Shown here: piece by piece, positions 1 through 59,290 of the stretch
Layout of the letters: each line of letters opens with the position of its first letter
How positions within the stretch are numbered: the stretch's first letter is position 1
NCBI GenBank assembly: GCA_964658305.1
Contig: OZ210885.1
Span: forward strand, 13,392,001 to 13,456,000
Direction: 5' to 3'
DNA: 64,000 bases
From: Leptogorgia sarmentosa
Lineage: Eukaryota
Program-made: the position numbers and the translations under genes
The notes under the pieces: generated by a model
The model's input: only the letters and a program-made list of their open reading frames with translations
Databases searched by the model: none
Told to the model about the DNA's origin: nothing

Positions 1-2051
1 AAATTTGAATGTTAATAAGCTACTTTGGCATGTTTCTAAGGTATTCGTATCACTGAAGTTATTGTACACATAAATATACTCACTCCTCGCAATTGAAATG
101 TAACGTTTTCAAGTGGAAAAGTGTAATTCGAGACTTTCCCCTCACCCCCTGAGGCCATCGTATCACGTGACCAGCCCCAGCCAGGGTCTCTCCTCCCCTT
201 GGGGTGCAATAGGAGAGAGCCTGGGTACGAGGTTGGTTGCTGGCTTATGTTTTTACTCTGCGTTTCACTTTTACACGTTTCGACGTTTACAGTTAACCGC
301 TGGTTTGAAAATACGCAGTCGCTGGAATCCTCAAACCAGCTGTTGCAATTATTGTTTGAAATGAACAATATGTACTTTTGGTGAAGGTTGAGAGGTGCTA
401 CTCAAACAGACGTATCTGGTTTTCCCCAGAAATCATTTTACTACAGCTACGTTGTAAAACTGCTGTTTCTGGCATCAAACACAAAAAGAATTAGTGAACA
501 TGGTCCAATCACACGATACGATACCGTTTGTAAATTTCATAAACCCCCACTCTACCATAGCTACATTGTGGTCAAATTGTATGCATTGTACAGGGCATCC
601 ATACCAGTGGTACTGTTGGTAAAACTTGATAACAGATCGCGAAAGTTATAACCGTGAAGCAAGGGCCATGTATGGCAGTTGGGCTTCGTTCAAAATAATG
701 AAAATATACTTTGTTTTCAAATGTAGTCGATTATGTACACAGGTTACAGGAACGAATTCAGATAAAATGGTTGAAATGTAAGACATATTAAGAACGAGCT
801 CTCTTTCTCTCCAACCCGTTTCCGAAAGTTGAAATACAAATTTTTAATTCTTTTTTTTCACTGAGTATATACCGCACGAAATAAAGACAAACACCATTGA
901 AATCCTAATAAACTGATCTTTCAAACGGTGGGTCGCACACAACAAAAAAAAATTAAAATTGCATGATCGTCGGAAACGTAAGGCATTAGCATCTATCTGA
1001 GAAAAACAGAGTCCAATATGTTGAAATGCATCTCCTTATTTCTCCCTGAAGCAGCATATTCATGAAACCTGTTTTATGTTCGTGTTATTTGCACATATAA
1101 TAACATTTCTACAAGCTTTTTTGCAATTGTCAAAAATTTCCGCACGCGCACGGCATTTACTAAAACAGGATAAATTCGAATAAAACGAATTCGACCTAAA
1201 TTAATATGGCGTTGGAGAGAAAGAGTACTTTTCGTAAGTTATACATTTTTCTAAAATGTATTAACGATTATGCTGTACGAAACTGACGAAATGCTTCTGA
1301 ATTTCACATATTCGCTACGAAGCACAAGTTGAATACATACAGTGAATATTTAACTCATTGTGATGACTGCGTCGCTATTTAGAGTTGACTCCCACTCAAA
1401 TATGGAACGTTACGTGAAACCCAAGAACTGAAACGATATGCATCAATCCGCTTCATAAACGTTCTTGTATTAAAATGTGAAGCCAATTTTTTAGTAAATA
1501 GCGATGTAGACAGTGGCGTAACTACTAGGGGCCCAACCTGGCCGGGGGCCCTGGGAAGAGGTTTCTTCAGGGCCGTGGCTAATGTGAAATTCAAATAATT
1601 TTTATTGAAACTGAAGATGCAAAAAAGTTCGAAGTTAACAAAATGTTTGATATCATTCAGTAGCTAGCTGAAACAACTTTGTTGCCTTTTAAATTGTGCT
1701 TGGATGTTGACAGTATATTAATTGTTGTATATTACAGTCAAACTTTTACTGTTGTCATTGTTTCTGCTTTATAGGAACTTATTTTAGTGTGCTTCTTTTT
1801 ACGGAACGTTTTTGCCTTTTGGGTATAATTGAAGCAGAAGAGATGTTAAATTGCTATAATATGTTCGATAAGAAATAGCAGAATTAAAATCCGTACCCGT
1901 CAGCAAAATCTTATTTCTTATCGAAACTCGCACACTTTAATACTAACTTTTAAGCAGAGCAGAAGTCGAGAAAACGTTTATGCAAATTTTCGTTTACCTA
2001 TTCTGAACAACATTTTCATATCCTTGTTTGATTTGTGTTTAAGATGCTTAC

Positions 2052-5000
2052 CATCGTCTGTTCCAATAAACACTCGCTGATCATCTGCACTGAAATCCAG
2101 GGCATTAACTGCAGTCTCCCCTTGGAACACAAAAAGCTGTTCATAATTATCCATTCTCCTAAAGATGGTTCTTTGGTCCCACGACCCCGACGCTAGTATT
2201 GTTCCACTTTGTGACACAGCCAAACAGCTAACGACGCCAGAATGTCCCTGTAGTTGTTGAACTTCTCTACCTGTTTATAAAATAAGATAGCATGTACATA
2301 AAAGGTGTAATAGATCATTTTTACTCATATCGTTATTCGTTACTACATTGGGAGTATTTTTCAAAACATTGCGGGGATAAAATAAACGATTGAGACAAGT
2401 AACTACATTAACTAACCCATCAGCTACACTCTGTTTACACCGCTAACTTCCATTTATACTATTACGTCCCTATAGAAACTTAAACAGCAATGTAAGCGAT
2501 AGACAAACACCGAAACGATCTTCAATACTAAAAACAAAATAACTGTAATTTTGCGGAATTTACTGTGCCGTGTTTTACAGGCTTGTGTTTTCATTCGTTA
2601 CTTCTTGGGATTTCATAAAAGTATGCCCTCATCTTTGTTGTGCAAGTCCATAGATATATATCGAGCCAACTTGAACGCTTGGGTAAGACTCGCTATACCG
2701 GTCCCTGTTGCCTCGATAACTAAAGTGGTAGAGTAACGGTCAATGCCGAACAGTTTACTGAAACTTATAATATATTTACTGGTGTTTAAAATTTAGTGGC
2801 TGATGTTGGTGGTAGAACAGAAAGTAGATAATTGGAAAGCATGCATGAAGCTATAAACAGGAAATATTCTATACAGCGAATACCAATGATTGCACAGAAA
2901 TGTTGTCCTACTTGTATTTGTAATTACTGAACTTTCACATTTTAAAATTGGCAGATATCATTTATGCACACGATTTCTTAATAATTGTATGTTTTGTTGT
3001 TTAGAAGAAATAATATGTCACTCTGTCCGAATTGATTTTTATACTTTTATTAATATGTTGCAGACAAAAGCATTCCCTCCAGCCATTTGTGAGATTTTTT
3101 TATTTTTTACCCAGTAAACATTGATCCTCAGCCTACCATTTAAAAGCGAAGTGAAATACACCGATCGATTAAAAGCCTGTAAATTGTTGCCTATCAGTTT
3201 CTGGCACGAATATCTGGACTTAACTTTCCTCTTTAAAATGACCAATGGTTTGGTCTCTGTCAACGACATCACACTACCAACAAAGAACCTTAGCCAGGAT
3301 AGAGTAACAAGATCAACAAGAAACCCCGATACCATTGTCTTCCATCACAAAAGGTGCAAAACGATCACATATCAGAAGTCATTCATCAACAGATCAACCA
3401 GGGCATGGAACATCCTACCTGATGAACTTAGAAATCATTCCTTAACATTACAAAGATTTAAAACCCTGCTCTATGAATATTACACTACTGCTTTAGACTT
3501 AAACTATGATCCAGAAAACCCTCGGACATGGAAATCAATATGCTTAAAATGCAATACCGCCCGTAGCCTTGCTACACAATTTTCTTGTTGTTATTGACAT
3601 CTCTGTATTGTTAATGTATTTCAACTTATGTAAGTGTTTATGTGTAGAATTTTTGTTAAAAGGGCCCACAGTAATTGGTATATAGACTGTTGTGGTGACC
3701 CTGCTACTATTTCTGTGGCAAAGTTAAATAAATAAATCCCGTTCAAGAAATGACTGAATTAATTTTTATCCCAGCGTAAATCTGGATACATGTCTCTTCA
3801 AGTATCTAATCCAAATTTCAAATATCATCATATGACGACGACTACCGTACATGATTGGCTAATTTTCTATTGAATTATAAATTACTTTGAGTGTAAACTT
3901 TTGTTCCCTCACCCATATCAACTGCATTTTAACTATATTCTCATTTCAATGAATAACCAAGATTAAAGCTTTTGTTTATTAGCTAACTTGAAAAAGGCAA
4001 GTATATGAATATGTTTAAAATATAGTCATAATATATACGCTATAATTCAATTTATGTGCTTCCAAAACTGAAACTTTTCTCAAAAACCGTGGCAGTAGGT
4101 TACAGGTCTAAAAAATTTGGATAATTATCCGTGTAACGAAATGAGATTTGGATGGCGTAATATTATTAATACTTAGTTATTTGCGCGATATATGACGTAT
4201 GTATACAGGGGTTAATTTTACACTGCATCAATATAGTTTTTTTTAAATTTTATCAAACTGTAACTATCACCAGACGTTTCTGTCTTTCCTAATAGAAAGA
4301 CAACTGCATTGTGGATAAGTTAAAAAATGGTTTCACATTAATTTTGTAGCAGAGGATTGGGGAATTTAAGATCTACGACGTGACCAACTCGACGACGACG
4401 AGCTTTCGAAAAAACAAATTTTAATGCGGAACAAAAACCAAGCATAAACCGTGGTGTCTACGGCTTTTTTGTTATCAACGCAACGTAAAGCTATAAGCAT
4501 TATAACGTCTTCAAAGCAACGGGAAGGTTGATTACAACATGAGAGCTGTAACTTCAAGTTGACTACACAGCAACGATCGCATTGTCTATCTATTTAGTTC
4601 ATTATCAGCGCTAAAAACAAGAATTAAAGCTGAAGGCTCGCAAAAAGTTATTTGAAAAGAATCATTTGCACATCAAAGTTTTGTTAATTAAAATGTTACT
4701 GCAACGATTTTTTTCGACCTCATTTTTTTGCGTTAAATAAATACCCAGGTCGAAAGACGAAATTTGGTGTATAGATGACTTTTGTACGTTGAGAGGAAGT
4801 AGCTAAATTTCGCCTCCGAACTTCGATATCGGATGCGAACAGAACAGCCGCCATCTTGTCACCTTGTGACGTCACAAGTGTAACACGTTTAGCGAAGCTA
4901 CTAGTAAATTCTGTTACGTTAGAGCTATACTCTGTGTTTCTCGTGCTTTTTGGGCCGAAAAAAAATCTTTTCAAACAAAACTTGAACATAGGCATTTTAA

Positions 5001-8000
5001 GACAATATATTTTGCTCATGTCGAGTAACGAGTCTGGCGGGGACCCGCAATCGTGCGAAAGTTCCAGTGAAACTGACCCAGTGTCGGATGGCTCAGTTAA
5101 CTCGGGTCAGTTGGGCGGCTCGTTAGTTCATGTCACATCGCACTGCTTTGCTTACGACGCCGAACCTATATATATAGCAGAACCTTGGGAAACGAGTTGT
5201 GTTCCAGAAGATCCAGATGGATTGTTGCTAGCAACTATTGAACAAAGAAGCGACGGTAGAATAACTCTGGAACAGTGATAAGTGAAGGTTCAAGACTGTT
5301 TAGACTTTAGCCTAATTAAAATAGCCGACGTAGGCTAAATTTAAATTTATATTTCATTGCTTTTATTTAATATTCATCTGTAGTGATATAGCTATTGTTA
5401 ATTTTGATATCAATATCAATATATTGATAACAGTATAATTATTGTTTCCACATTACCGTTTCCACATTCTCATTTTCAATTATTAGATTTGTAAATACTT
5501 AAGCTGTGGCAGAATAAATTCATTCGATTTAATATGGAAAATTCATAGGAAGTTCATTTACCTTGTCTGTATGCTTAGTATTACAGTAGTTAGGGTTATG
5601 AAATTTCATCTGCGTTTGCTTATACGGTATAAACATTCATGTAAATCGTTGGGTGGAAATATTTTATTTTGTTTTTCAAACCAGCGCAGGAAGTGCACGA
5701 ACTACGAGTTGTACAAGTTGTTGTTGTCACATCGGGCATGTCGTCACTGGGCAAGTCAAAGGGTGTATCATCATCAATATCGTGACTTGTCATTGCCATC
5801 TCTTCAACTTTTGCTGGAGAAGACACCAACTTCACTGGCGACAATCTTTCACCGCCACGAATTACCTAAAAATATACGAATAATTTAAATATAAAGTGCT
5901 TCGCATATTAGTAAAATTTACCATGTGCATGGGCGAAGAATGCGCCTTTGCACGCATGATACAATACTCGTGTTATTTACCTGTAATCGTTTTCGCTCTG
6001 TGATCTGCTGTTCGGCCGGTGGTATAATTCCAGCTACATCAATCGTAGGAACAGCATCTTCTTTCAATCTCCTTTTAATATTTAGCGATTTTGCCAACCC
6101 TAGATTCATATCATAGCACGAATCTTGGAGTGGGCTGAACAATACCAAGAGGTCGCAGTAGCGTGAAAGACGTGTCTATGTTTCCGGACAAATTTCACGC
6201 ACTTATTCCGTCTCTGAGCATCTGTTTCTTCATTAGGGAATAGATGCATAGATATTTCTTCAGTTTTGCTATCATTGGCGCAGCTAACTAAGTTAGGACC
6301 GCCAGCAACGCAGAGTTTTCCTCCGCGAGTACCTTTACGTCTATTAGAAATATAGGCCATGCTGAAAATGTGTTACACTTGTGACGTCACACGGCATTAA
6401 TATGGTGGTCGAAAAGTTCGCACGGAAGTAGCCAAAAATTGCAACTTCGAAAGGCCACAAAATCCGTTTGAAAAGAGCAACTGTAATTCTGTTTGCGGTG
6501 AACATATTTGGAGAGTCAGTACTTTAAAATATGCCAAATAAAAAGGGGTCGAAAAATTCGTTGCAGTAACACATTAATAACCAACCAAAATAGTGTGATT
6601 ACGTATCGAATTTTCGGTTTAACCCAGATAGTAGCAATTAACATCCACTGACAGTTCGGTATTAGCCTAGTGGAAATTCAATTCAAATCTATCAAGAGTT
6701 GCAAAACAAAAGCAGTGCAATAGCCAAAACGGGAAAAAGTTCGAGGGTACAATTGTAGAAACTGCCTCTTAAGTCGAGCTGTGTATTGCTGTTAAGAATT
6801 TCAAGAACACTGGTTAATGAGTTTAAGCCCTCTAAAACGTCGCACAAACTACTTACGTTTTTTAGAATAATTAACTTTTCGCATGCTTAATTTAGGCTTG
6901 CATACCTGTCTCTTCGTCTAAGACGCTGATTGAACCATTCTTTAAACCACAAATGGCTAGAGTACAGCCTGCAGCATTGGTCGTGGCTAATGAGGTTACG
7001 GACGTATCAAACGTCTTTCGCGATATCTCAGAGCCTCCGAGATCCAGACACGAAGATTCCGGTAAAAGATAGCAGGTCTTCGTGCCTGTTTCACGGAGTT
7101 GCTCTAATATCGTTTTTATCCTTGGATACTCTTGATACGATAGCAGCCTGCCTGGAAAATAAATATACACAACAGTCTTATGATATATCCTGGCAAAATC
7201 ATAAAATTAGGCCTACATATTATCGTTCTTGCCTTTGCAACTTATTTTTAAAATGGATAGCTTTTTGATAGAAAAAAGTAAAACTGATAAAACAAGTTAT
7301 GATTTACATTATTATACATTTAAAATTTATTCTCGTTCCTGATTGGTCAGAAAGCACCGGCTAATTCTCAGTATTCGGTATTTATTACGCATTTTCCGTC
7401 GATGACGTCATCAGCGTCCAATAATTATTTTTTTGGATCGAACTTGCATCCAAAAAATATATTACCTTATTCGCACTTAATTTCGCGTGCTTTTAATTTC
7501 GCGATTTTCGCGATTGAAAAATAATCGCGAAATTAAAGTCGCGCGAATAAAAATCCTCGCGAAATTTAACCACACGAAATTAAATACATTAGTAAAAAAT
7601 TAGAATTGTTAAATCATTAATTTCTCAATATATATGATCAACAACAACACGTACAGCTCGCATATGAATTACAATAAATGTTAAAATTCAATAAAATTCC
7701 ATTGTTAAAAGTTAAAATTCAATAAATGATGGTTTTGAAAATCTGTATTTCGCGAAAATTAATGCCCTTTTTCTATTTTCGGTCATCAAAATCGCGAAAA
7801 TAAAGTCTCCCTAAATATGACTTCGACAAAATCGCGAAATTAAGTACCCGCGAAATTAAGTACGAATAAGGTATTGGACTCTCTCGTGCCCAAGCCCTAG
7901 CGCTGTCAAAAGCTTGAAGCTAAAAGCCCGCGAAAAAAACAAACAAACAATGGCCTGCAGCAGATTTGCTTCGCTGAATGAAAGTGAACTCTCTTTTAAA

Positions 8001-11000
8001 TGTATAATAAAACAATTATTCGATTCGGCTTTCGCATGATATCAAGAATTATTCAGACCTCGGTCAATGTTATCCGCCTCAGCTTCGCTTCGGCAGATAA
8101 CATTGACCTCGGTCTGAATAATTCTTGATATCATGCTCAGCCTCATCCAATGATTGTTTATTGTATAACAAAATTACGATATTATTTCTTTGAAGAGTTT
8201 TGATTGGTTAAGAGCTGTGTATGAAATGGTTATATCCGTTCGCCAAAAAACGTATATGACATTTGGACGTAATTTTTTCGTATATTGGAAACTCACATAC
8301 GACATTATTTTCAAAAATCTCGTCTATAATGGGAATTGTCTATAATATTATTGAATTCAGCTCTCATAGGACATGCGGAATTATCAGCTCTTTGCGTCTG
8401 CAGATAACACAAATCTCTGCTTCAATAATGAACATTAATAGTAGATGAATTTTCAAAACCTTTCATTTCTAAACGTCGTCGCGATTTAGTGATTTTCACA
8501 TAATGGGGCCATAGGAAAATTCAGAATCGAGTAGATCTCGTGCGAATATCAGAGTTGGCATTTGAAAAATTCCTAATGTACGTTAGACATACATAAATGG
8601 TGTCAGCCCGTTTATTATCTTATAAGCCAACGAGGAATCTCAAACCGTCGAGTCGTTCTTCTCTGCAATCCATAATACCCTTTGAAGTATATTTCTACCG
8701 CACGATTGCTTCACGGAACTGAATTACATCATTACTTGTTCTATTATCGCACAACATGAAACTTCGGTCAAGCTTCGTTGATAGTTTATGGTTGTAGAAA
8801 GCCAGGTTAAGGTGAAGTGATTAGTGCACTCTTTGCCAGACTTGGGCAGATGTTTTCCCTTACCCGAAGATGAGTACAGTATGGAATTCCCATGATTACG
8901 CATTGTTTGTTATTTTATATTCAGTCTGTAACCAAATAATACAGGTTCTGGTTGCGCATGACGGAAAGTAAGACAAGACAAGGGAAGGGAAGGTAAGACA
9001 ACGCAAGAATTGTGCACGTAAGGGAAAATTACGGGGCAAGAAAGGCCAAGAAAGAATATTCCATAGCAAGCTGAGGCATACAATCCTGGACAAAAGTTGT
9101 TTTAAATCCAACTCTTTCCTCCAGAATCCAATGTTGCCACGTGAAATCGCAACAAAACATTGCAGGGCTTTAGCAAACACGACGCGAAGTCAGCGGGAAC
9201 GTGACAATGGCGTGGCATGAGAGATTTTTTACTTCCCGTTTAGACTAGGACGTCGCACATGTTCTGTTGAGGACGGCATCTGGGCTGTTTTCCCCTCCTC
9301 TCCAGAACGTGACATATGAATGCTTGTGTTCAAACATATTTTCCTTGCTAGTTCTGAATTTTATTTTGATTGACAAGCGTACGTCTAAATAACTCAACGG
9401 GTTTTAGCTGCGTTAATTCTTAGCGAACGTTTTAATCGCCATAATAAAATGATCAAATTGTATACGTCGTTAATCGGTTCAATGTTAGTCGTTTTTTACC
9501 AAATGCCACATTTTAGAACACAAAAGTTGGATGAAAACAACCTGACGTTAAAATGAACAAGTAAAAATAGAAATAAGATGAATTTGCACCACTTGAACAG
9601 AAGAAAACAGATTTCATTTTTTTAGCCTTAAAAAACTGTCAATTGATACATATTCAAACACACGACGGAAAAGTTGGACCTAAATATGGATATTGATATC
9701 GAACAGTTTTACTGAACGGAAAATGAAGTATTTAACTTGTAAAAATTACTTGCAGATTTGCGATTTCAAAACCGCGGAAAGACCAATAAAACTGCCTTTT
9801 CCAAAGAAACACATTAAGTGTTACTCAAAAATCTTCAGAAAAATCTTCTTGCTCGATTTTTGCCTAGTTTATGACAAATTTAAAAAGACATAAACTACGC
9901 TTAATCCCTACCCAGATCCCGAAAACCCGAAAAAGAAAAGTCGGGAAAATATTGGGAAAAAAGTTTTAACTTGAAATCACTATAGCACGAATAAGCGTTG
10001 AACCGGGACTGAACTACAGGGTGTCTCAAAAAAAAGGTAATCGAACTTTGCCATGCCATTGTGCGTTAATTACTGAGTGTACGAACGTGATTTTTGCATG
10101 GTCATAAAGATCAAGGTCTTAGCAGTTGAATGACATATTTCTTGTACGATATGGAAGAAAATCAGGCAAATGCGAGCGTGTTGAAAAATCTCGGTGAAAA
10201 ACGCATTCTTTCACCTCTGTGCCTAATTAAAGCAGTGCATAACAAAAGAAAAATGCAATTCATCACGAATGTGTCATGGTAACAAAGATTTTATCAGGAT
10301 TATTAATAATTATGCATAATCAGGTGGATTGTTGAAGGGAAGGTCGTCATCTTCGAGTCCCAGAGGGAGTTTATTTTGAATAAGTTTAGCTGCAATTCTC
10401 AGAGGTGAAAGAATGCGTTTTTCACCGAGATTTTCCAACACGCTCGCATTTGCCTGATTTTCTTCCATATCGTACAACAAATATGTCATTCAACTGCTAA
10501 GACCTTGATCTTTATTTATGACCATGCAAAAATCACGTTCATACACCCAGTAATTAACGCACAATGGCATGCAAAAGTTCAATTACCTTTTTTTTGAGAC
10601 ACCCTGTATAAAATTGCGACAGACACATCGCGCGCCTAACCGTCCGAGCAAATTTCGAGCTCGCTGAAATTCTTCGAATGTTTACGAAAAGGAAATAAGC
10701 AGCGGCGTACAACAACATTGATTTTGGGGGGTGTGGAGTTACAACGCTTTTGTTCAAGATTGAATCTTGGACAAACGTTGTTGTAAACCATCGTCCCCCC
10801 CCCTCCCAATTCAAAGTTGACACGTGAAATCTCCCACCTTGATTTTGGGGCTGTTACAATTTTTTTTCCCACGACTGTAGCATGGGGGAAAGAATGGAAT
10901 GGTAATGATAATGTAAAGGTAAACTAAACTATAGGAAAACTGGATAAAATAAAGTTCATTGTTTTATTACCTAGCAGTTGTGGACAGATTGAATCAGCAT

Positions 11001-14000
11001 TCTTCTCGATAACGTGGGAAGAAAACATTAACGATGATTTGAGGAGTTGGGTTTCCTGTGACAACGAGGCGCCCAAAAAACGAAAATCTGATACTACGGA
11101 GGGTAGGTCAATGTGTTTCACTTTTTGTTGAAGCCAGTTTAAATCGAAGAACAGTTGAAGTAGTTCACCGTGTTGTTCAGAGGAGGAGATGTGATAGGGT
11201 AGGAACTTGAAGTAATAGTCTTTTTGCGCGGTAGTTGAATTTTCATTCCATTCACCGTTGACGCATTGGCCACGAAGTGTCTCCACAAACAAACGCTGAA
11301 CACCAGTTATTGAGCCCGTGACTTTAAGTTTTTTCCGGGCAAAATCCAGCAGTAAATCATGCACACGGTAGCTTGTCTTCTCTTGAAGTTGAGGTCCTGA
11401 AAAAAAGATTTTTGGGACGTCAAGCATCAATCAGTTACTGACATTGGTGCATTGACAAGCGATATCCAACGGACAGTAGGTTTTCGTTTTTCTAAAACTG
11501 ACTAATAAATAGTAATACAAACATAAAAACTGTTTTGCAACTTGACTTCTGACTTAAAGGACAGTTATTCAATGCACGACTTGCGGTTTAGAGTAATTTT
11601 AATGTGAGGAATTACTAAAACATCGCTCGTGTACCTTTTTGAATCATGGATTTTCTTTCAAGAGCATCAAGTATACGTCTTGATTTCCTAGATTCACACG
11701 ATGTTCTACCGGCTCCTTCTGCGGACCAAAACAGCTCCAGTACATCTGAAGGTATATTTGTATCTTCTGGAAATATACCAAAATATAGGAACTTTTCTTG
11801 TTCCCATTGTTCTAAGCGTTCAAAGCTAATATTAATGGCTGTAACGATGTTATCATAAGGATAATTGTCGGTGGCAACCACTGAATGAAGTTCTTCCAAA
11901 TCAGTAGTAAATCCATCTAAAATATCTTGCCAAGCCTGTTCCGACCGATTGCCGTTTAAATTTGAGCCAACAAGCGAGAGGGCCAGCGGCAGGCCTTTGC
12001 ACTGTTTCAATAGTTCTTCAATAATTTGCTGCATTTTTGGACTAAAGCTAGGCAGTTCATCTTGCTTAATCCCAGCACTTTGAAAAAATAGCTCCCGAGA
12101 TTTATCCTGTTCCATTATATCGAGTTCGTAGACAAAACCTTTTGAACCTCGGACAACATTGACATCTCTGGTAGTTATCAATAACTGACATTTTTCAGAC
12201 AAGGTATCAAACACAGCAACGTCGTTAACATTCCAAACATCATCAAGAACTACAAGACATTCTTTATCGCTCTGCAATAGATAGATACTGCATGTAAGAT
12301 ACTGCATGGTCTTTGCTGAGTGTCTTCACACTAGTAGACAGCCTGGAAATGACTTCACCGCAGTGCGACTATACCTTTCAGTTTATTAAAATTTTAGAGA
12401 GAGTTTAAAGGAACGCGCCACGTACATTATTAACTCCTATGCAAATCCGATTAAAGATATATTAAATAGTACTTTTAATTCAAGGGTTACACAGCGGAGC
12501 CAACAACCTCGAACAGCCAAGCGAAACAAGGATTGAATACAGGGCGTGTCAAAAAAAGTTTAGTGTAGGAAATATTCCCTAAACTAACGTGCGTTAACGA
12601 AATCTGTGAAAACGTTGAGTTAACCTATGTACATCTCGCACTGAGTTTATTAAATCTTTTTTCTATCATTTTTGGAGTAGGAAATGTGCTGCTGATGGGC
12701 ATTTTAAAAATGACTTGCGCACAAAAACTAAGCTCTTTTCACGAATTTTGATTCAATCGACTCAAAATATGGAGCATGTTGTACAAGTTATTAAAGTGTT
12801 GTGGAATTTGCTTCCCGCAGTGTTGTCACTGCGAGAACTGGATTTTGCGCTGCTTCCTGCGTGATTACCGATTAATTTAATGCATAATTGGATATTCATT
12901 AATTTTCAATGCAAATTCCAAGCTAATTCCCAAAGGTCTTAATTGCCGGAAGAAATTGCAGGAAATCCACTTTTCGGACATCGCGTGTTCGCCTCAGCGT
13001 GCACCAAACCCATGGATGACCGAGCGGCCTCCAAGACAAGTAACAGGTAAAGTAATACCATATTATTTGAATAATTATATGCATGTACCTTTTATAATAA
13101 TCTAAATAATATGCTAATGATTTAACCTTAACCCGTTTTCCGCTCCATTATTTCGCCAAAGCCGGCGAACAAAATTGACAAGGATATGATGTTTTATATT
13201 CATTCGCCACTGAAGAAATTTGTTCCACTTTTGTAGTTGTTGAAAATGTTCACTGTTGGCGCGAAAGAACGAGGAATTAGATTTCTCGGTGGCAAAATTA
13301 TTCGCCAGCGGCGGCCAAATACGTGAGTGGAAAACGGGCTTTACGCGAGCTTGTCCGGGAAGAATAAAAATAAGGCTTGTTTGAAATTGCTTTCGAACCC
13401 AAAAAATTCGAATGCATACATACTGTGTTCTTTTTAATCCAGTCTTGTGCTTCACGGATAACACTGAAAGGTTTTGCTCCACCAAGAACTTTTATTAAGG
13501 TGTTAATCAGTGCTAAACAGTCAGGAGTTTCCCCAACATCAAGCCATATCACTTGACGTGAAACTGAAACTTCCCATGCGACAGCCAGAGCTAAGATGGT
13601 CTTACCCAGACCCCCCATACCACGGATACCAACGACGTCACCGCTGCGACTTCCCACCACACCAACTTTACTATTTCCCTCCGTAAGTAACTTCAATATC
13701 TCGTTCACTTCTGATGGTCTTCTCACCATGTCACGAGGTAGACTGCGTAAACCATACCAGCCTAAGGTAGGAAATAAACGAGTTATGCTGGTTGAGTACA
13801 ACTGAAGCTAAAAAATCTATAATAAATGAATGGAGATCATTAATTCAAGAGATATCTCTTCTCAGGTTTTTAAACAGTTCAACATGACTTGATATACACA
13901 TGCACCAGAACTACAAAAACAGAAAGTTGTCCTGTATTTAACATCTATTTTGGTAAAATATATCTTTCATGGTGATTATTACAAGAAGTGTCCTAACTTT

Positions 14001-15032
14001 GTTTTTTTTATGACTCATTCGAATACCTCAAGACCATTTGATGCTTCATATAAACAAGCCCCAACAGAAAGCCTTATTTTAGCCGACAACTTATGGACTT
14101 GGCCACGCTACAATATGCAATGGCATTGTATATAGTAACAATGCGTTGCGTGTTAATTTCTCGCTTAATGTATGTTGATTTGCTAATTTTCGGGCCGTAT
14201 TGAAATTTTACATATTCCTTTGTGGTTCCAAAGCCACTGTTCGAATCGTGAAATGATTTTGTTAAGACTGGGTGGGGAGCAGAACTTTTGCTCTTTGTTG
14301 ATGTTGTTTTCTGCTACCGACACTGGCCACAAAATGAAACATATTGTCATGAATTTTAATACATTTATTGTCACAAACCATCCCAGAGATGGACGAGAAA
14401 TATGAACTGCACGGTCCGCAGTTCTTGCCCACAGAAAGTAGTCATTCAATATAGAACAAAAAGCTTGTGCTACGAAGCTTGGATGGATGGAAATTGCGGA
14501 AAACATAAGTGTACACTAGAACACAACGCATAGTACAATTACGCTCTCTCTGTTCCATCAGTTCTCATAATTTGTATATTTGAACTATGAAATCGAGATC
14601 ACATGACAATAAAAATAAACGAATTCGGTATTTTGACATAAATGGAAAAATGAAACTTAAATATCTGACAAAGGAGAAACTGGACGTTCGAATCCAGAAT
14701 TGGAACCAAAATTTTTAACGAATTGACAGATCTAGTTACTCAGAAAGTTAATTTTGCTGCATAACATGTTTTGCATAAATACAGTTTCACTAGTTTCTAG
14801 TCATCAAAACCATACTTTGTTTCTCTGCATAGTCTGAATGCTCCGTCCTGATCTTTTTATGAAGAGATTCGATTTCATCTGTGTTCCGTTCAATTTTCTC
14901 CGCCTGACGTTTAAGCTCCTTTGAATTGTGTTGAAGTTTTTCTGAGTTATCAGCTGCACATCTTTCAACCTCGTCAATTTTGCAAAACAGTCTTGACTTT
15001 AAATTGTCAAGTTCTTCCACCACTTCATCCAT
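2052..15032 (-). CDS. APAF1-like STAND protein: coiled coil + NB-ARC + helical domain + WD40 repeats (multi-exon, 3' end not found in the window)
   Basis: Phase-compatible GT-AG exons: 15032-14816 (coiled coil), 13761-13424 (Walker A GMGGLGKT), 12271-11635 (Walker B LVVLDDVW, LLITTRD, GLPLAL), 11396-10971 (MHD-like VHDLL), 7151-6906, 2270-2052 (WD40: GHSGVVSCLAVSQSGTILASGSWD). The last exon ends on a splice donor, so the gene continues leftwards. Confidence 0.88.
3115..3737 (+). mobile_element. 5'-truncated LINE (CR1/L2-type) 3' end, in an intron
   Basis: ORF 3121-3597 resembles the post-RT C-terminus of CR1/L2 ORF2 (Y.DRL..L.LLP...E.LDL.FLFK; SF.NR..R.WN.LP). Followed by a short 3' UTR ending in (TAAA)n. 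Confidence 0.7.
4692..6573. mobile_element. Internally deleted Kolobok-like DNA transposon (THAP fragment on -, second-gene fragment on +)
   Basis: Imperfect ~33-bp TIRs (TGTTACTGCAACGA...TCGTTGCAGTAACA) with TTAA on both sides (4688-4691, 6574-6577). Frameshifted THAP domain at 6360-5980 (-). Convergent acidic ORF at 5018-5278 (+). Confidence 0.7.
5980..6360 (-). pseudogene. THAP zinc-finger transposase N-terminus, frameshifted
   Basis: CVAGG...SC, HLFP, CSAH, then in another frame LKEDAVPTI (THAP AVPTIF box). Confidence 0.75.
7310..8161. repeat. Unclassified repeat family with ATTATACA..TGTATAAT inverted motif and long terminal hairpin
   Basis: Hairpin at 8035-8135. Related copies at ~28886-29262, ~32370-32510 and, reversed, ~33968-34260. 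Confidence 0.55.
7465..7871. mobile_element. MITE with TA TSD and many (TT)TCGCG/CGCGAAA subterminal repeats
   Basis: TA|CCTTATTCG...CGAATAAGG|TA; nested inside another repeat (7310-8160). Confidence 0.75.
10017..10606. mobile_element. Tc1/mariner-type foldback MITE
   Basis: TA|CAGGGTGTCTCAAAAAAAAGG...CCTTTTTTTTGAGACACCCTG|TA; inverted arms of about 200 bp. Confidence 0.85.
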
Positions 15033-15309
15033 CTGGAAAGATAAAAGTGACATGTCGCATAAATAAGTGATATATCTTTACAATATGAAGTACACAGCTG
15101 CAGTGTTTTATAGGGATTTCGGGCACTGATAAAACTAGTGAAAGTACTAATAATTTCCAGCGTGAAAATTACAGTTTTTCATCTAATGTCATTAGTATGT
15201 AAGCATGCATTTTTCAGTCGCGTATACCCAAAACGATAATTGGGTGCCCCATATTAATATATTCATGTTCTGCGCTATAAAATTTCTATAAAAAAACAAT
15301 TGTCTTTAT

Positions 15310-16689
15310 TAGGCCGTTTGCTGTGACCTCAAAAAGTGCCTAGAAAACTATTTTCATTTCACCTGTCTTGGAACTGAAATATTTTTACCGGAACTAACAC
15401 TTTCGGATACGCTGAGTTCAATTCCGAAAAGTTCCCGCTCCGTAGACCTGCAGTTTTCTCACCAACTGCAATTTTATCTTCACTAATTTTACGACAACTT
15501 TCTTCATTGTTCAACGACACGGATCGATGACGACAAACGATTATGTCACTCAAAAGGACCAATTTCTATTGACCAGTCTTCCTTTTAACAAAAGATCGGT
15601 TTTGCTCGAATCATTTTGAGTCATGTAATATTATGCGTGTTGAACGTAAACAACATATCTTGTCTATAACTTTGGATATGTACAGATAAAGCTTTCTAGA
15701 ATCCTCAGTTCTGGATCTATCTCAATAAAATCACAAGGACGTTAATGTTAAGTCTTTTGGCTATGTCTCTGGGCTGAGAATAACTCTTTTAACACGATCA
15801 AGGAATTTAAAACACAAGTAACGCGAAGCCAACGGAACGGCAAAGACAACACTAAAATGACATATTGTCGACGGGTTGCTGGTAGAAGACTTACGACAGG
15901 TTCACTCTTAAATAATCGTAAACTAGAAGAAATAATGTTCACATCAAATACAAATATCAGTGCCAAAGTATAAAATCTGCTCTGTAAACTTACGAAGAAG
16001 TGGAGAAAGGTGTGCATGAGCTGTTTATTTGGTGATTACAACGTATATGAAAGCCCTCTTTCCAATAATACTCGCTAATCGCACAGAATAACGCCAACTA
16101 TATAATAGTTCAAATGCAATGACAAGTTACCTCTTGAATTACATCTCAAAAACTGTGGTGGAAATTTAAATGCTGATCCATTACATAACTTTACCGTTTT
16201 ACATCGTTGTATAAAACATTTTGATCGCATGTAAAGAATTATTTCTCAGCCCAGAGACATAGCCAAAAAACTAAGCATTAACGTCCTTGTAATTTTATAG
16301 AGATAGAGCCAGAACTGAGGATTTCAGAAAGTTTTATCTGTACATATCCAAAGTTATAGACAAGATATGTTGTTTACGTTCAACACGCATAATATTACAT
16401 GACTCAAAATGATTCGAGCAAAACCAATCTTTTGTTAAAAGGAAGACTGGTCAATAGAAATTTGTCATTTTGAGTGACATAATCGTTTGTCGTCATCGAT
16501 CCGTGTCGTTGAACAATGAAAAAAGTTGAAGATAAAATTGCAGTTTATGAGAAAACTGCAGGTCTACGGAGCGGGAACCTTTCGGAATTGAACTCAGCGT
16601 ATCCGAAAGTGTTAGTTCCCGTAAAAATATTTCAGTTCCAAGATAGGTGAAATGAAAGTGAACGATATTGGAACGCAGCAAACGGCCTA
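15310..16689. mobile_element. Non-autonomous foldback DNA element with TAG..CTA ends and 3-bp TSD (Academ-like)
   Basis: TAT|TAGGCCGTTTGCTG...CAGCAAACGGCCTA|TAT; inverted arms of over 400 bp (about 15355-15785 vs 16238-16653). Confidence 0.75.
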
Positions 16690-18124
16690 TATGGTATGTG
16701 AACACGGGTATAGGAATATGCCCCCATTCCCAATTATCGCTATTGCTACGCCACTGGCGTTTTTAGAGTTTTTTTTCCTCTGTTGTCAATTAGCCTTTTT
16801 TTCTGCTTCAAGTTCTGTCAAAAACTATGAAATGCATGTACAGTACCTCACAGTGAGGACGACATATTGAATGCTTGGTCGACATAGAAGTAAAGTCGAA
16901 TACCAGCTAGAATTAGGTATTGTAATTTAAATGCTGCGAGCAGAACTGGAATCCCAATTGGCTGCATCTTTCGCAGTCGTCTCTTGGTTAGTTGAGTGGT
17001 CGTCATGCCATCAATCGCACTAAACGGTCCACGCACTTACGGTTTTCAGGCGTACTCGATCAAAAGTAAACGGCTGCGTGGTTTCTAGGCGTATTCGGTC
17101 AAAACTAAAACGCTTTCTGGGCGTTATTGATCAGAACTAAAGGGCAGTGGGACTTTCTAGACGAAATTCTGTCAACTGCGTAGGTATAGGCAAAACAAAA
17201 CGACTGCTTAGATATGCATTGCTGGAGGTCGATATGGGCTTTCCCGTGTCGTGAATTTAAAATTGTTTACCAATGGCGTGTACGTAGCCATACTCCATTC
17301 CCTTCGGAAAATGCGCCAGTACAGTTGGCGGAAACCGCAACTTCTCCTCGAGGCCAAACGCTTGGCAAGCGTCTTCTATCACGTTTAAAGAACAATTTCA
17401 GCTATTTGGAATTTTGTATAATTTGGCTGTTTAGTGCATTTCAAGACGAAATACAATATATTTTTAAAAGTAAGCGTTCAATTCGTGGTCTTCTGCGCTG
17501 TTTAATAGAGCCTGAGTTAAGGATCACTTAAAAACACTAGCTTAAAAGTATTTTGAGCGTGTTATCACTAAACATTGTTAGCTACGTAGTTATGTACGTT
17601 TTAAATCGGCTAAAAAACATTCCATCTTTTTATCACGCAATAACGAGCACCGTGCATACAATCAATTACAACTCCTAAACACCTTTGGCAAAAAACAACC
17701 TTTACGAGCTAACCTGTGGAAATAGCTTCATGACTTTTCATGTCCCGGAGGGAGACAAGTTCTCGAAAAGGGGCCAACTTTCCTGTGACACCCGAGTAAA
17801 GCAAAATATGGTCTGCTTGTTGAACGGTTCCATATAATACTAATTTAGCGATTGCTAGGGGGAATATTAGATTTTTCTCAAACCTTTTTGTCTGCTTCAA
17901 ACTGCCAGGTTTCACCACTTCGACGAAGTTCGTCAAGTAATTTTAAGTAACGACCATCAACAAAAACGTCCGAGACTAAGAACGAAAAAGTATATTATTA
18001 AATCAAGCGAATAATACAATAGCACAGGTACCGTATTTGCAGTTATAAGGAATTCCCAGGGTTAGTACTGTTCGGTATGAGAAATTTCCGGTATGGGTAT
18101 TCGTGAAAATTATACTGAAATTAT

Positions 18125-18272
18125 TACTTCAGAATAACGAACAAGAGCAGGAAGGATAATCTCACTACCTAAACGATAAAACTGATTCGACGTATCGTTT
18201 AGGTAATGAGATTATCCTTCCTGCTCTTGTTCGTTATCCTGAAGTGCTACCTACGCTGGCCACGTGTGCTGT
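18125..18272. repeat. Inverted pair of a Penelope/retrozyme-like repeat fragment
   Basis: 18125-18193 and its inverted partner 18194-18272 both match 31670-31766; the turnaround is at GATTCGACGT. Confidence 0.65.
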
Positions 18273-18287
18273 AATTTAAACTGATAC

Positions 18288-18882
18288 CTTTATTCTTCCA
18301 TTCCAGTAGATCATCACACGCCTGTTTTTCAAGATCAGCTGATAAATTAATGCTTTTCATCAATAATTCCATGTCTTGAATTGCATCATTGAACATCACA
18401 TTGGTCCAATTGGAAAAATTACAATGAGCCCACTCATTTCTCACTTTTGACCTTACATTCTTTGCGTACACTGAGGCACCAGATGTTATGAATGGATCTG
18501 CTTCACACATGATAGTCAGTAAAGCAGAAAGATCCATTGTATCGTCAAAACCTGTAAACTTTGCCATGAAGGGTTGAACGAACAACTTTGCCAAAGACAG
18601 AGCATCTTTCACCGCGTAGTCATATGCGGGAGATTTGTGTACATCATTACCGTTGATGTTTTTATATTGTAAAGACAACGTTGATGGTGCCAGCGTTTTA
18701 ATTTGCTTTCCGAAAACTTGTTTGTCAATTTCAACAGGTGGTTTACATAAGTCTTGATACCAGCTCTTCAATTCTGCATCGACAACTTTCCTCAAGGTGG
18801 GAGTGACAACTTTGGTAAGGCAAATACCTGTTACAACCCATCTGGATTCTTCATCTGTTGTGTAACTTGCACCGGTTGCCAT
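18288..18882 (-). CDS. HEPN-like (DZIP3/hRUL138-type) N-terminal exon, probably the 5' part of the NB-ARC/WD40 gene
   Basis: ATG at 18882 just after an acceptor; 198 codons, predicted all-helical, with an RxxxxH motif (VRNEWAH); ends on donor G|GTATCAG. It ends in phase 1 while the 15032 exon starts in phase 0, so a linking exon is needed (candidates near 17714-17855 and 16847-16906) and was not resolved. Confidence 0.65.
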
Positions 18883-19704
18883 GATTCAGGGATCTACACA
18901 TAAAATATACGTGAATTAAGTGTACGCAATTTAACAAGACTTTCAGCTGCAATCAATGAACTTCATAACATTTTCATGCACTCCATATTTAAAATATGCA
19001 GTTAACATCAAACTACGTGGCACTAAAGGCCCATTTACACTACACAAGAATTGGCGCGCCATATATGGCTAAAATTTGGAACGGATGCCGGTTTTTATTG
19101 GCACGGCACCAGGAAATTTCTGTGTGTAAGTTTCTACCCGTGCCGAGACCCAGAACATAGTTGGACAAATGCCGTGCCATACAAAATGATACCAGGTTGC
19201 TTCGATGTACGCATGCTCGGTACGTTTTTCAAAATCGCGGAAAAGAAAGAAGCGGGGGGCAGTTTCGAACGCATTTACTAGAGTGATGCAAAACATCATT
19301 GGGCGAGCCCTGAGGCCATTGTATACCAGTGAGGTTTCCGAGATTATAGCTCAGTCAAACTTGAATTTTGTTAAAACCCTTTTGTTATTAGCGTTAACAA
19401 AAAGAATTAAAGCTTAAAATCAGTAGAAAGCTTTATGACCTGAGAAAATTTTGTACAGTTATAAATTTTGTTAATTAATTAATAGCCATCTAAAATAGTG
19501 TGACCACGTGGCAAACTTCCGGTTTAATCCAGATTGTAGCAATTCTACACATAGGTCGAGGCGAAGTTCTATTCAAATTCATCAAGAGATACAAAACAAA
19601 AGCAGTGCAATAGTCGAAATATAGAATTGTCAAACAATGAATCGAGTACAAGACGGCGGGCGGAAAGTTGTAGTGTGCAATCGTAAAAACTGCCTCAACA
19701 TACG

Positions 19705-19889
19705 CAGGGCCGTCGCTAGAACGTTAATTGGGGGGGGGGTTGCATATTCATATTTTGGCGTTCTGCCGACTGATTTCTTTTGAAATCAGTTGTTTATGAA
19801 TTAATTTCTAAAGAAATCAGTCGGCAGAACGCCAAAATATGAATATGCACCCCCCCCCCCCCCCAATTAACGTTCTAGCGACGGCCCTG
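19705..19889. mobile_element. hAT-type palindromic MITE
   Basis: CAGGGCCGTCGCTAGAACG...CGTTCTAGCGACGGCCCTG with a perfect 8-bp TSD AACATACG (19697-19704, 19890-19897). Confidence 0.9.
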
Positions 19890-22800
19890 AACATACGATA
19901 AAACGTTCATTAAGACATGCGACAAAGCACGACAAAACCCAAAGTGCCTGCACTCATGACAAAAACGACTGAACGTACGTATGAGCACGTCGAAAAAGGT
20001 TTTTCACCGGGTCAGGGCTATTTCAGATACCATGAGGCAGATCGGTCCTTTGGCACGTAATTTTCACAAAATAAACAAGTCCCAAACCATAAATCTAACC
20101 CTAACCGTAGCATTCTAACCCCAACCACTAAAAACAATTCGAGAGAGTAAGAGAAAAATCAAACAATGTTTTCAAAGGCTTTTGGGAGGGTAAGTGGTGC
20201 TTGGCGCACAGTCCCTCGGAAAATATCATCACTTTGGAAATATTACGCCGAATTCCCCTCCCTCCGGGTCTATAAATGATAAATAGCTACTGTATTTCTT
20301 TCGTTATGTGTGTCATTCATTCCGTGCCATTCTAATGCAATAATCGCTCAAAAATACGCTTAACTTTAGGTAAAAAATTGTTCGGCACAATACATAATTT
20401 CCCTCCTGAAATACGCATATAGTACACTGAAGGGCATAACGAACAATCACAAAAACTTCCACTATAATATATACAATTCACTTCGGCATGCTATCAGATT
20501 TAATCTCAGTCTTGTATTAAGTAACAATGGATGTTTTATGTTAGACGCAATCTTTAAACTTTTACTGACTGAAATGTTGGCAATCATATACTATAGTTTT
20601 TAATGAAACTTGTAAACAAACTTGCGTGAGGTATACACTGCTAGTATTGAAGTTTGCTTTCCTATGAATTTGAAGACTTCGTCGCAACCTAATTAGTCAA
20701 GAACAGCAAATTTGCTAACAGCGCTACAGAATGAGCGTTTCTAAGTTGCAGTTATATCGCTGAAAACCTGAAAGCAATAAAGGTCCACCTGTTGTTTGGT
20801 CCCTGGTTATTGCATGCTCAAGTCTGTATTGAATAAGCCCGAAGTGAGGATGGAGGCTGCTTTGTTTGGCAATGCTCAATTCAATTTAGGATTTTCAACA
20901 AATCGTGCCAAGTAGCGCTGTATGCATGACATGTCAGCGATTGAACACGCACCAGTCATATGTATGTTCACCATGATATAACCACACAGGAATCAGTACA
21001 GATAGTAAGGAAAAGCTTAAAAGCATGTATTAAATAATGATTCATGACCCAAGCTTTTATATAAAGATCCAAATCTTGTCTAGTTTTATCAGTATCTTGT
21101 CTGAATAAATCAAGTTCAATTTACAAACATGTACAAACGCTCTTGCATGACCAATATCTTGGATAAACTAAGTGGTGATTTGTGGAGTTTATGTGCAATA
21201 CAAGGCTCACGAGATCACAGATAATTAAAAGTAAGAGCGACATAGAACACCCTCACATAACCTGAAACGATATTACACGAATGGTAGTAGCGTAAAGGCA
21301 TGTTTGTTTGTTATTGTGTTGCAACGTCATCAGATGGATATTGTGCTTTGAAAGGAAATTTGTTATATGGGATTTTGTTACGTTATTGTGCAAACTGGAA
21401 ATAGTTTCAAAACTTTTATTATAGTACTCACCAAATGTTAAATTCGCAAAGATGTTAAAAGGACAAAAGCTTCTGTATTAAACTTTTACGACGTAAATAA
21501 ATGTCGTCACATATTGAGAACGTTCCAGCTTTTGTGTTTGTGGGTTTCACTTGAATGGTGCTGGGTCAAAGAATAATATAAGTCATATGTCACGAGTTGC
21601 GTGGGAGCAAGGAGCAGCATGTATTTACCATGCATCAGACATTGAATATGAGTGCGAATTACAATCGACTCAGACTTGTATAGGGTGCCGGTTCCAAAAA
21701 AGTTTTCTTTATAGAAATCACTCTTTTGTTGTTAATCTCGGGTTATAAATTCACTATAAGTTTAAATTCACTTCTGTTGAACAGCATCATAAATTCGTGT
21801 TGTTTAGCCTCATTTGCCCCAAAAAGATTTATTTGGCAAGTTCCACTTTAACAATTTTTCCTGCATTTATAGTTTTTAATGGACGTGAAACTGCAGAGAC
21901 CTGTCCAAAGTTATACAACAAAGGTTGGATACAGACATAAAGAGCAGACCATCACGTGTTTGCTAAAGCTGCAATAACAACTCAACTGGTCATACGTTAA
22001 GTATGGCGTAGCGTTCGCAGTAATTGTAACTGTCATTCAATAGAAACCTATCACAAAGTCATGGCTAGCTGCTCTATATAGAATTGTAAGGTTAAAAATA
22101 AAATTGTAATCAGCAGGAACCAAACCAGAGTTATTGTGGTAAATATCAAGTGAAGCAATAATAATTGTAATACACGTTAATACACAGGCAGAAAGCTAAA
22201 AACATCATACACTACAGTCATGCTTTGTAGCGGGAAATTCTACCTTTTTACACGTCTCTGCGAGGCAATCATTGCAATTTTCAGGGCACCAGATTATAAC
22301 TTGTACATTTAATATATTTAATGGGGAGCTAGGGCAATCTTTCAAGTTTTAAAGTGCCCAGTTTAATTTGCATGTACATGTGCCAAAATTAACAAAAACG
22401 TCAACAATATATGTCTACAGGTTTGACAGATCAAAAGGAAGTGGCGAAAGGAAAACAATTAAAATATTCCACAGAAACAAAACACTTCACTTATAAAAAC
22501 TCTTTGATATCAATCACACTGATGAATAAAGCAACTTTGTTATTTCACATATAGTTCGGTGCCAGCGAGATATTTGTTATCATTCTTTAGAGAGAGTATA
22601 ATAAAATCGGCAGGATTATCAAACAACGTTTGTATTTTCAACAATATATACCATAATCGATATAATTGAAAAGATTGGGCTACATGTGGTTTGGGATACA
22701 GAGATAAAGAAAGAGATTTAAAAGGTAATCATCAAGCTCGTTATATGCAGTTAGATTTGCAAATCTGAAAGATCATCTGACCATGTCGGTATAATATCTA

Positions 22801-24672: not shown

Positions 24673-24882
24673 CCCTTACGAAAAATACACATGTGAAACA
24701 CATGTGAAAGTCATGTGGTTCACATGTGAATTTGGAACAATCACATGTGATTCACATTTGATTCACATGTACTCACATGTGAACCACATATACTCACATG
24801 TGAAACACATGTGATTGTTCCAAATTCACATGTGAACCACATGACTTTCACATGTGTTTCACATGTGTATTTTTCATAAGGG
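24673..24882. mobile_element. CMC/EnSpm-like palindromic MITE rich in CACATGTG
   Basis: CA|CCCTTACGAAAAATAC...GTATTTTTCATAAGGG|CA: 2-bp TSD, CCC..GGG ends, near-perfect palindrome. Confidence 0.75.
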
Positions 24883-58900: not shown

Positions 58901-58923
58901 GTTTCTATTAGTGGTTTTCCATG

Positions 58924-59290
58924 TCTCTCGCTAAAAATATCGTTTGGCGCGACATTTACTTCGATTGCGTCGCTCTTTCTCCGCCAAAAATGTCGTTTTA
59001 TTTTAGTCAAATGTCGTTTTATTTTAGTCAAATGTTGTTTTATATATTTGACAAATTTCGTTTTATATATATTTGGGAATTATATTATGTTTCGTTTTGA
59101 GTATATCATATATAAATGTCGTTTCATATATGATTGTTTCATTTCATATATTTCTGTTTCGTTGTACGTATATCTGTTATGTTTTTTATATTATAATTTC
59201 GGTTTATAAAAATACATTTGAGATTATATATTTGAATTATATATTATATTTATGCACATAAAGTAATATTGTCCATCTTGGCACGCCATA
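58924..59290 (-). repeat. Right TIR (367 bp)
   Basis: Reverse complement of the left TIR. Confidence 0.92.

Follow-up and report, generated by a model that had tools for sequence, protein, structure and literature searches.

The window analysed here, a stretch of 64,000 nucleotides of contig OZ210885.1 from Leptogorgia sarmentosa (assembly GCA_964658305.1), carries exons for an APAF1-type NB-ARC and for WD40 repeats and, upstream on the same strand, a helical exon with an RNEWAH motif. This raises the question of whether an APAF1-like receptor of this octocoral is fused to a predicted HEPN RNase, as a preliminary description of the locus had proposed. We addressed in turn whether the head exon belongs to the gene, what kind of domain it encodes, what it replaced and how such a protein might work.

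Head exons and NB-ARC body in one gene model

On the minus strand, eight GT-AG exons in matching phases join to 923 codons that are free of stops and frameshifts. The features of the locus are as follows.

18288..18882, minus strand: exon 1 (aa 1-198), HEPN-like helical head, putatively CXorf38/Swt1-like; ATG at 18882, phase-1 GT donor
18424..18441, minus strand: RNEWAH (R148-N149-x-x-x-H153), predicted HEPN catalytic motif closing helix 136-153 of the AF2 model
17884..17975, minus strand: exon 2 (aa 199-229), 92 bp, phase 1 to 0, bridging head and stalk
16847..16885, minus strand: alternative start, 13-codon open mini-exon with a phase-0 GT donor, outside the preferred model
14816..15032, minus strand: exon 3 (aa 230-301), helical, coiled-coil-like stalk
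13424..13761, minus strand: exon 4 (aa 302-414), N-terminal half of the NB-ARC, Walker A at 13598-13621; Pfam NB-ARC E 1.1e-5
11635..12271, minus strand: exon 5 (aa 415-626), Walker B at 12233-12256, LITTR, GLPLAL and winged helix; Pfam NB-ARC E 2e-22
10971..11396, minus strand: exon 6 (aa 627-768), VHDL (MHD-type) at 11353-11364 and APAF1 helical domain; Pfam APAF1_C E 1.1e-11
6906..7151, minus strand: exon 7 (aa 769-850), linker followed by the first part of the WD40 region
2052..2270, minus strand: exon 8 (aa 851-923), WD40 repeats, phase-1 donor; Pfam WD40 E 9.2e-13

An in-frame TGA lies two codons upstream of the ATG of exon 1. At the other end, a phase-1 donor closes exon 8 at 2052, and the gene therefore continues past window position 1. 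The WD40 part within the window hence comprises the first repeats only, with the C-terminal half of the gene lying outside it, and the homologue P0001 runs about 800 aa beyond the part that matches exon 8. The preliminary range of 10971..18882 had thus captured its features correctly but not the extent of the gene, to which the exons at 7151-6906 and 2270-2052 have to be added.

The preliminary description could not join the head exon to the helical exon at 15032-14816, since the donor of the former is in phase 1 and the latter is in phase 0. We scanned the gap between them (18287-15033, 3.25 kb) for open phase-1-to-0 exons with a YAG acceptor of at least 70% pyrimidines and a donor score of at least 5 of 8, and exactly one candidate, 17975-17884, passed this splice and frame filter. 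In tblastn this exon 2 is matched by P0001 (58%, E 8.5e-6) and P0022 (55%, E 4.4e-6), in both of which its counterpart directly follows the head and is 4 residues longer than in the window. A search among longer proteins with exon 1 returned 21 matches from 565 candidates, two of which, P0001 and P0012, also carry NB-ARC and WD40. Both align colinearly and in a single block over aa 1-923, with 537 of 939 positions identical for P0001 (57%) and 613 of 972 for P0012 (63%); all eight exons are matched by P0001 in tblastn, exon 7 at 52% (57% by P0012). Since the ORFs of P0001 and P0012 are intron-free and nearly fill their contigs (91% and 89%, respectively), both are probably assembled transcripts. 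In P0022 the head is joined to the stalk, after which the sequence diverges and has no NB-ARC. A metagenome scan with exon 5 confirmed one of 86 stretches, a genomic fragment (L001) that backs intron 4 only and has it at the same position, with the same exon 4 donor and exon 5 acceptor. Contigs of one sample (runs X1-X3) cover introns, with none of the listed joints at the modelled splice sites, and are uninformative on splicing. Taken from these homologues, head exons and NB-ARC body are very probably spliced into one mRNA, with exon 2 supplying the link that had been missing from the proposed fusion of an RxxxxH head to an APAF1-type body. A gene start near 16885, named beforehand as the finding that would speak against this fusion, finds no support: the mini-exon is present and open, yet it is matched by none of the 261 fetched proteins.

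The body is of the APAF1 type

All five NB-ARC motifs are intact, namely Walker A GMGGLGKT (aa 349), Walker B LVVLDDVW (420), LITTR (445), GLPLAL (507) and VHDL (638). The Pfam matches to NB-ARC (exons 4 and 5), APAF1_C (exon 6) and WD40 (exon 8) all exceed the cut-offs, and exon 7 scanned alone gave no Pfam match. Against the PDB, the best match of exon 5 is APAF1 (E 2.2e-14), as are all six matches of exon 6. The gene product hence combines the Walker A and B, sensor, GxP and MHD-type motifs of an APAF1-type NB-ARC (AP-ATPase) STAND protein with a subsequent APAF1 helical domain and WD40 repeats. Exons 1-3 are without a death-fold Pfam match, the N-terminal CARD of canonical APAF1 is missing, and tblastn with the N-termini of four DED/Death relatives against the window matched nothing but 13 residues where NB-ARC exon 4 begins. 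The predicted product is an APAF1-type NB-ARC-WD40 protein and not canonical APAF1. In these respects the preliminary reading, an APAF1-type NB-ARC with all core motifs, WD40 exons on the same gene, no CARD or death-fold exon and a helical RNEWAH exon upstream on the same strand, holds.

Between head and NB-ARC, the best heptad register of exon 3 places hydrophobic residues at 62% of the a/d positions, and in the model of P0022 (pLDDT 66.6) the stalk is helical at low confidence (pLDDT about 50-60).

Identity of the N-terminal head

A near-length search with exon 1 returned 300 matches from 352 candidates. For alignment A1 we combined 113 of the best 120 near-length matches with the window exon (114 rows), P0022 and six near-duplicates being excluded; the start methionine of exon 1 is common to 104 of these rows. 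Among 141 homologues, R148 is kept in 138, N149 in 140 and H153 in all, together with the upstream D117 in 140, and R, N and H are present in all four APAF-linker proteins. This conservation discriminates only weakly, as 44 of the 198 head columns are also at least 97% conserved among close homologues. In 20,000 shuffles of exon 1, R[NDH]xxxH arose by chance in 0.56% and RxxxxH in 3.9%. The head thus carries a conserved R-[D/N/H]-x-x-x-H at a helix end, the pattern by which the HEPN motif is defined in the available part of 10.64898/2026.05.28.728550, where HEPN catalysis is also stated to require dimerisation.

Domain searches gave weak matches to HEPN-type families. At E<=0.1, 87 of the 114 A1 rows match HEPN_Swt1 and 39 match DUF4559 (CXorf38), the latter match being absent on the window exon itself; these matches span the motif region (aa 117-181), with scores below the curated cut-offs (17.1 against 27.5 bits for the window, 25.4 against 27 for the best DUF4559 match). 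HEPN_DZIP3 (PF18738) matches neither exon 1 nor any of the 114 A1 rows at this threshold, and the DZIP3-type assignment of the head suggested at the outset is rejected. In the Atlas, the window exon reaches a recognition value of 2037 against a bar of 2300, with only 3 of the 10 best family matches agreeing, compared with 8 of 10 for the paralogue P0019. All families that the Atlas shows are DUF4559, HEPN_DZIP3 or HEPN_Swt1, each on a minority of cluster members (11-39%), and the Atlas gives no family name for the aligned part. Its HEPN_DZIP3 labels may be due to an additional fused domain; in P0010, for example, the DZIP3 HEPN is a second domain, set apart at 263-407.

The AF2 model of the exon 1 head is all-helical (pLDDT 80.5). 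With this model Foldseek retrieved nothing at E<=0.001, and a profile search of the PDB with A1 gave no match at E<=10. In VIA-align, acyl-CoA dehydrogenase, a generic bundle (Z 8.8, rmsd 3.0, 95 aligned), outranks the C-terminal domain of Swt1 (Z 6.7, rmsd 3.2, 113 aligned), which itself stands among unrelated bundles, and the HEPN toxins 5YEP_B (Z 6.6, rmsd 4.4, 99 aligned) and 7AE2_A (Z 6.3, rmsd 4.1, 101 aligned) are tied with or below unrelated bundles. A scan of prokaryote genomes with A1 gave 75 pattern matches, of which none was confirmed, and found no bacterial relative of the head.

We consider it very likely that the head has a HEPN fold. The converging sub-cut-off matches suggest that it is weakly CXorf38 (DUF4559)/Swt1-like, and its D117 may correspond to D134 of CXorf38, judging by spacing. 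The accessible text of PMC3710099 classes CXorf38-family HEPNs as active and the eukaryotic Swt1 HEPN as inactive. Our literature search found no animal CXorf38- or DZIP3-type HEPN with demonstrated RNase activity, human CXorf38 being a prediction only. The head of the window gene is, on balance, predicted to be an active RNase.

Relatives and the adaptor probably replaced

Named homologues come from Dendronephthya gigantea, Paramuricea clavata and Xenia. An NB-ARC search with the corresponding region of P0012 gave 640 matches among 7,992 scored candidates, and of the best 120 of these, two bear the HEPN-like head. The nearest relatives carry APAF1-like names in Dendronephthya, Xenia and Nematostella. 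Those without the HEPN-like head have a tandem DED in P0145 (E 1.6e-10), P0147 (E 2.1e-17) and P0150 of Nematostella (E 4.5e-16), and tandem Death domains in P0148 of Xenia (E 2.6e-35). Two Dendronephthya models among them, P0144 (match below cut-off) and P0146 (E 8.2e-9), are truncated and show part of a DED. The identity of the NB-ARC to that of the nearest DED-type sister proteins is 62-65%.

We inferred an NB-ARC tree by maximum likelihood from 29 rows, comprising all 15 animal and the 14 best other sequences of the 58 with enough coverage; canonical APAF1 is absent among the best 120 of the 640 matches and hence from this tree. The window gene, P0012 and P0001 form a clade (support 100/98) nested in a group with DED and Death proteins (100/100). 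The simplest reading of these relationships is that a cassette of HEPN and stalk replaced the death-fold adaptor of a DED-type APAF1 paralogue, the direction from death fold to HEPN following from the DED of the Nematostella outgroup. The replaced part was most likely the tandem DED or Death pair of such a paralogue and not the CARD of canonical APAF1, so that the label 'APAF1-like without CARD' is right on the absence of a CARD and would need amending as to what the head replaced. The HEPN may have been captured once or twice: the head tree sets P0012 apart from the window gene, P0001 and P0022, yet AU tests reject neither one origin of the head (p 0.132) nor the window gene and P0012 as sisters (p 0.065).

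The same head and stalk occur in an expanded octocoral family of another build, HEPN-like-STAND-TPR-beta-helix-MYND (P0002 and others, automatically annotated as 'uncharacterized'), with which the window gene probably shares its cassette. Their head is 54-65% identical to that of the window gene and their stalk is homologous to exon 3, whereas the sensor is TPR/beta-helix in place of WD40 and the NTPase shares only 23% identity with the window NB-ARC.

Comparison with known receptors

APAF1 and the invertebrate Apaf-1 paralogues share with the window gene the NB-ARC, winged helix, APAF1 helical domain and WD40 repeats. Paralogue heads are CARD pairs, Death, DED and TIR, all of them described as interaction modules in the available part of PMC2246300, whereas the window gene has no CARD, DED or Death and bears a predicted enzyme head and a helical stalk instead. 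Fusions of HEPN to STAND proteins in invertebrates, invoked in the preliminary description, are in print for cnidarians. In passages of PMC3710099, cnidarian fusions of CXorf38-family HEPNs with NACHT and Death domains are described, and RNA degradation in apoptosis or defence is proposed. The window gene resembles these in its RNExxH, its weak DUF4559 match and its cnidarian STAND fusion, and differs from them, as far as those passages go, in its APAF1-type NB-ARC and WD40 in place of NACHT, in having no dsRBD or Death and in scoring below the Pfam cut-off. DZIP3-type HEPN-NACHT/NB-ARC expansions are likewise reported in the available portions of PMC8260672 and PMC10236652. The coral DZIP3-like HEPN-NACHT-WD40 and HEPN-NB-ARC-TPR receptors have the logic of HEPN, STAND and repeat sensor in common with the window gene, but differ in HEPN family and chassis.

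In the tables of PMC10236652, which cover five stony corals and Pfam/InterPro-detectable domains only, 175 of 180 WD40 rows are NACHT proteins, many with a DZIP3-like HEPN, and the remaining 5 are NB-ARC proteins that all have death-fold heads (Additional file 17); none of the 7 APAF rows has a HEPN (Additional file 16). A HEPN-APAF1 fusion is also absent from the available passages of PMC4715348, PMC8195603, PMC11251625 and PMC10192318. HEPN-NACHT-WD40 and HEPN-NB-ARC-TPR proteins are thus already catalogued in corals, and a HEPN on an APAF1-type NB-ARC-WD40 chassis was not found in the freely readable texts searched; paywalled articles, or supplementary tables of PMC3710099, PMC8260672 and PMC8195603, may list it.

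Two bacterial systems offer analogies. RAZR is an oligomerisation-activated HEPN RNase in immunity, as shown in the accessible part of PMC13017515; it would resemble the window gene in working only and, by that text, has no STAND domain. Bacterial Apaf-1-like proteins bear a protease in place of the CARD (passages of PMC13581612), an analogy to the enzyme head predicted for the window gene, the effectors named there being caspase-like proteases. By this analogy, the window gene is expected to work like a sensor-effector STAND.

Proposed mechanism and rival explanations

WD40 propellers hold APAF1-family proteins in an ADP-bound off state, and a ligand triggers nucleotide exchange followed by ring assembly. 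By family resemblance, the propellers of the present receptor would keep it ADP-bound and off until some ligand triggers exchange and assembly; nothing in our sequence analysis supports cytochrome c as this ligand. The stalk of about 100 residues could then let neighbouring heads pair into a composite HEPN active site of two motifs, whose RNA cleavage would lead to translation arrest or cell death without caspases. We regard such an RNase output in place of a caspase, as put forward in the preliminary description, as plausible. An APAF1-like STAND receptor with a predicted HEPN RNase head that cuts RNA upon sensor oligomerisation is the best overall explanation of the locus, and we regard the case for it as evenly poised. 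With slightly less confidence, we tentatively propose an octocoral 'RNase apoptosome', in which a catalytic HEPN cassette was swapped in for the death fold and oligomerisation-triggered RNA cleavage would kill or silence the cell, which would make it the equivalent in animals of the sensor-effector receptors of bacterial abortive infection.

The same fused gene and HEPN fold would also suit a head that is a non-catalytic adaptor or RNA-binding module and pairs with other HEPN-STAND heads, much as the replaced DED/Death pair recruited partners. The head sits in the adaptor position and belongs to a large family (300 near-length matches and 21 longer ones), the eukaryotic Swt1 HEPN is among those listed as inactive in the portion of PMC3710099 cited above, and surface and core residues are conserved across the domain as strongly as the motif. 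Against this stand the complete R-N-x-x-x-H motif, the retained D117 and the listing of the CXorf38 group as active in that same text, and we judge a non-catalytic head unlikely. That an RNase head is instead pre-dimerised through the coiled-coil stalk and autoinhibited, with a ligand freeing it without any apoptosome-like ring, appears quite improbable to us: the intact Walker A/B, GxP and MHD-type motifs together with the APAF1 helical domain suit a nucleotide-switched oligomer, and the stalk is modelled at a pLDDT of only about 50-60.

More fundamental doubts concern the head itself and its place in the gene. Were it another helical effector with an RNxxxH that arose by chance, the sub-threshold Pfam scores, the empty PDB sequence search, the Foldseek result, the mixture of HEPN and unrelated bundles in VIA-align and the missing Atlas name would all be accounted for. 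However, independent weak signals converge on HEPN-type families, the Pfam matches cover the very region of the motif, and the strict motif is rare in shuffled sequence, which makes a non-HEPN head very unlikely. We hold it to be highly improbable that the HEPN exon is separate or unused here and that the NB-ARC gene begins at 16885 or represents a decaying copy. The open phase-0 mini-exon at 16885-16847, the splicing of P0022 to the stalk followed by divergence without an NB-ARC, and a 3' end beyond the window would allow for it, but 923 codons run through without a stop or frameshift, the whole fusion is present in two relatives (P0001 and P0012), and no homologue backs the mini-exon.

The general theme of HEPN-STAND proteins is already known and has been predicted since 2013. 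The present locus would add an effector swap on an APAF1 chassis, and, if the preferred reading of an oligomerisation-triggered RNase holds, animal receptors of the APAF1 type can execute the response as single proteins without a caspase, as bacterial defence STANDs do. The head domain family in octocorals is large and would be missed by Pfam-based immune surveys, because no member scanned reached the cut-off. The close DED and Death sister proteins serve as natural controls, and it is therefore testable whether the hundreds of cnidarian HEPN-STAND proteins are ligand-gated RNases.

Relatives and possible copies of the head exon

The HEPN-like head encoded by exon 1 is shared with a large family of octocoral STAND-TPR-beta-helix-MYND proteins, as the searches with exon 1 revealed (P0002-P0021, P0022-P0141). 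At least 300 near-length matches to the head were obtained, nearly all of which lack a precomputed Pfam label, and in the protein P0010 the head lies N-terminal to a DZIP3-type HEPN domain. Within 18273-18950, the contig depth over exon 1 is several-fold above that of unique intron stretches and contigs carry an in-frame 3-base insertion at 18627, which weakly hints that the genome has additional exons closely similar to the one for the head.

Stalk and NB-ARC comparisons

In the relative P0012, the stalk (residues 260-320) contains an expanded seven-residue repeat, so that stalk length differs among relatives by whole heptads. When the NB-ARC region of P0012 was used as query, the top 13 NB-ARC-WD40 matches were animal-type, and below these most of the matches listed were bacterial or metagenomic sequences with 25-36% identity. 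Vertebrate APAF1 was absent from the 120 matches listed; this absence and the bacterial and metagenomic excess among them may be an effect of the word-based search.

Repeats and neighbouring genes

The following further features were found:

15352-15801 and 16221-16657, inverted repeat pair (451 bp, 92%) within intron 2
5100-6400 (-), ORF fragments in intron 7
7995-8162, 10015-10608, 18126-18272, 19705-19889, 24673-24882 and 43784-44846, palindromic or inverted-repeat elements
25724-37500 (+), exons with immunoglobulin domains and tandem calcium-binding EGF units, divergent to the gene under study
47423-50845 (+), multi-exon gene with a HECT-like domain at its end (E 4.4e-6)
51323-52168, integrase-core (rva_4) ORF
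52599-58379 (-), BEL/Pao-type LTR retrotransposon
58358-58930, ORF

The intron 2 repeat pair probably represents transposon ends, and some contigs jump over about 15274-16690, which suggests an empty allele or a copy without this stretch. The palindromic elements are likely MITE-type repeats, those within 1500-20500 showing very high contig depth. The intron 7 fragments, which we take to resemble a THAP-type zinc-finger gene remnant, gave no match in a Pfam search.

The immunoglobulin/EGF exons belong to a gene or genes of cell-adhesion-like type. The BEL/Pao element, flanked by the integrase-core ORF on one side and the 58358-58930 ORF on the other, has a coding region broken by a stop; it was inserted recently, since its 191-bp end repeats are 100% identical.
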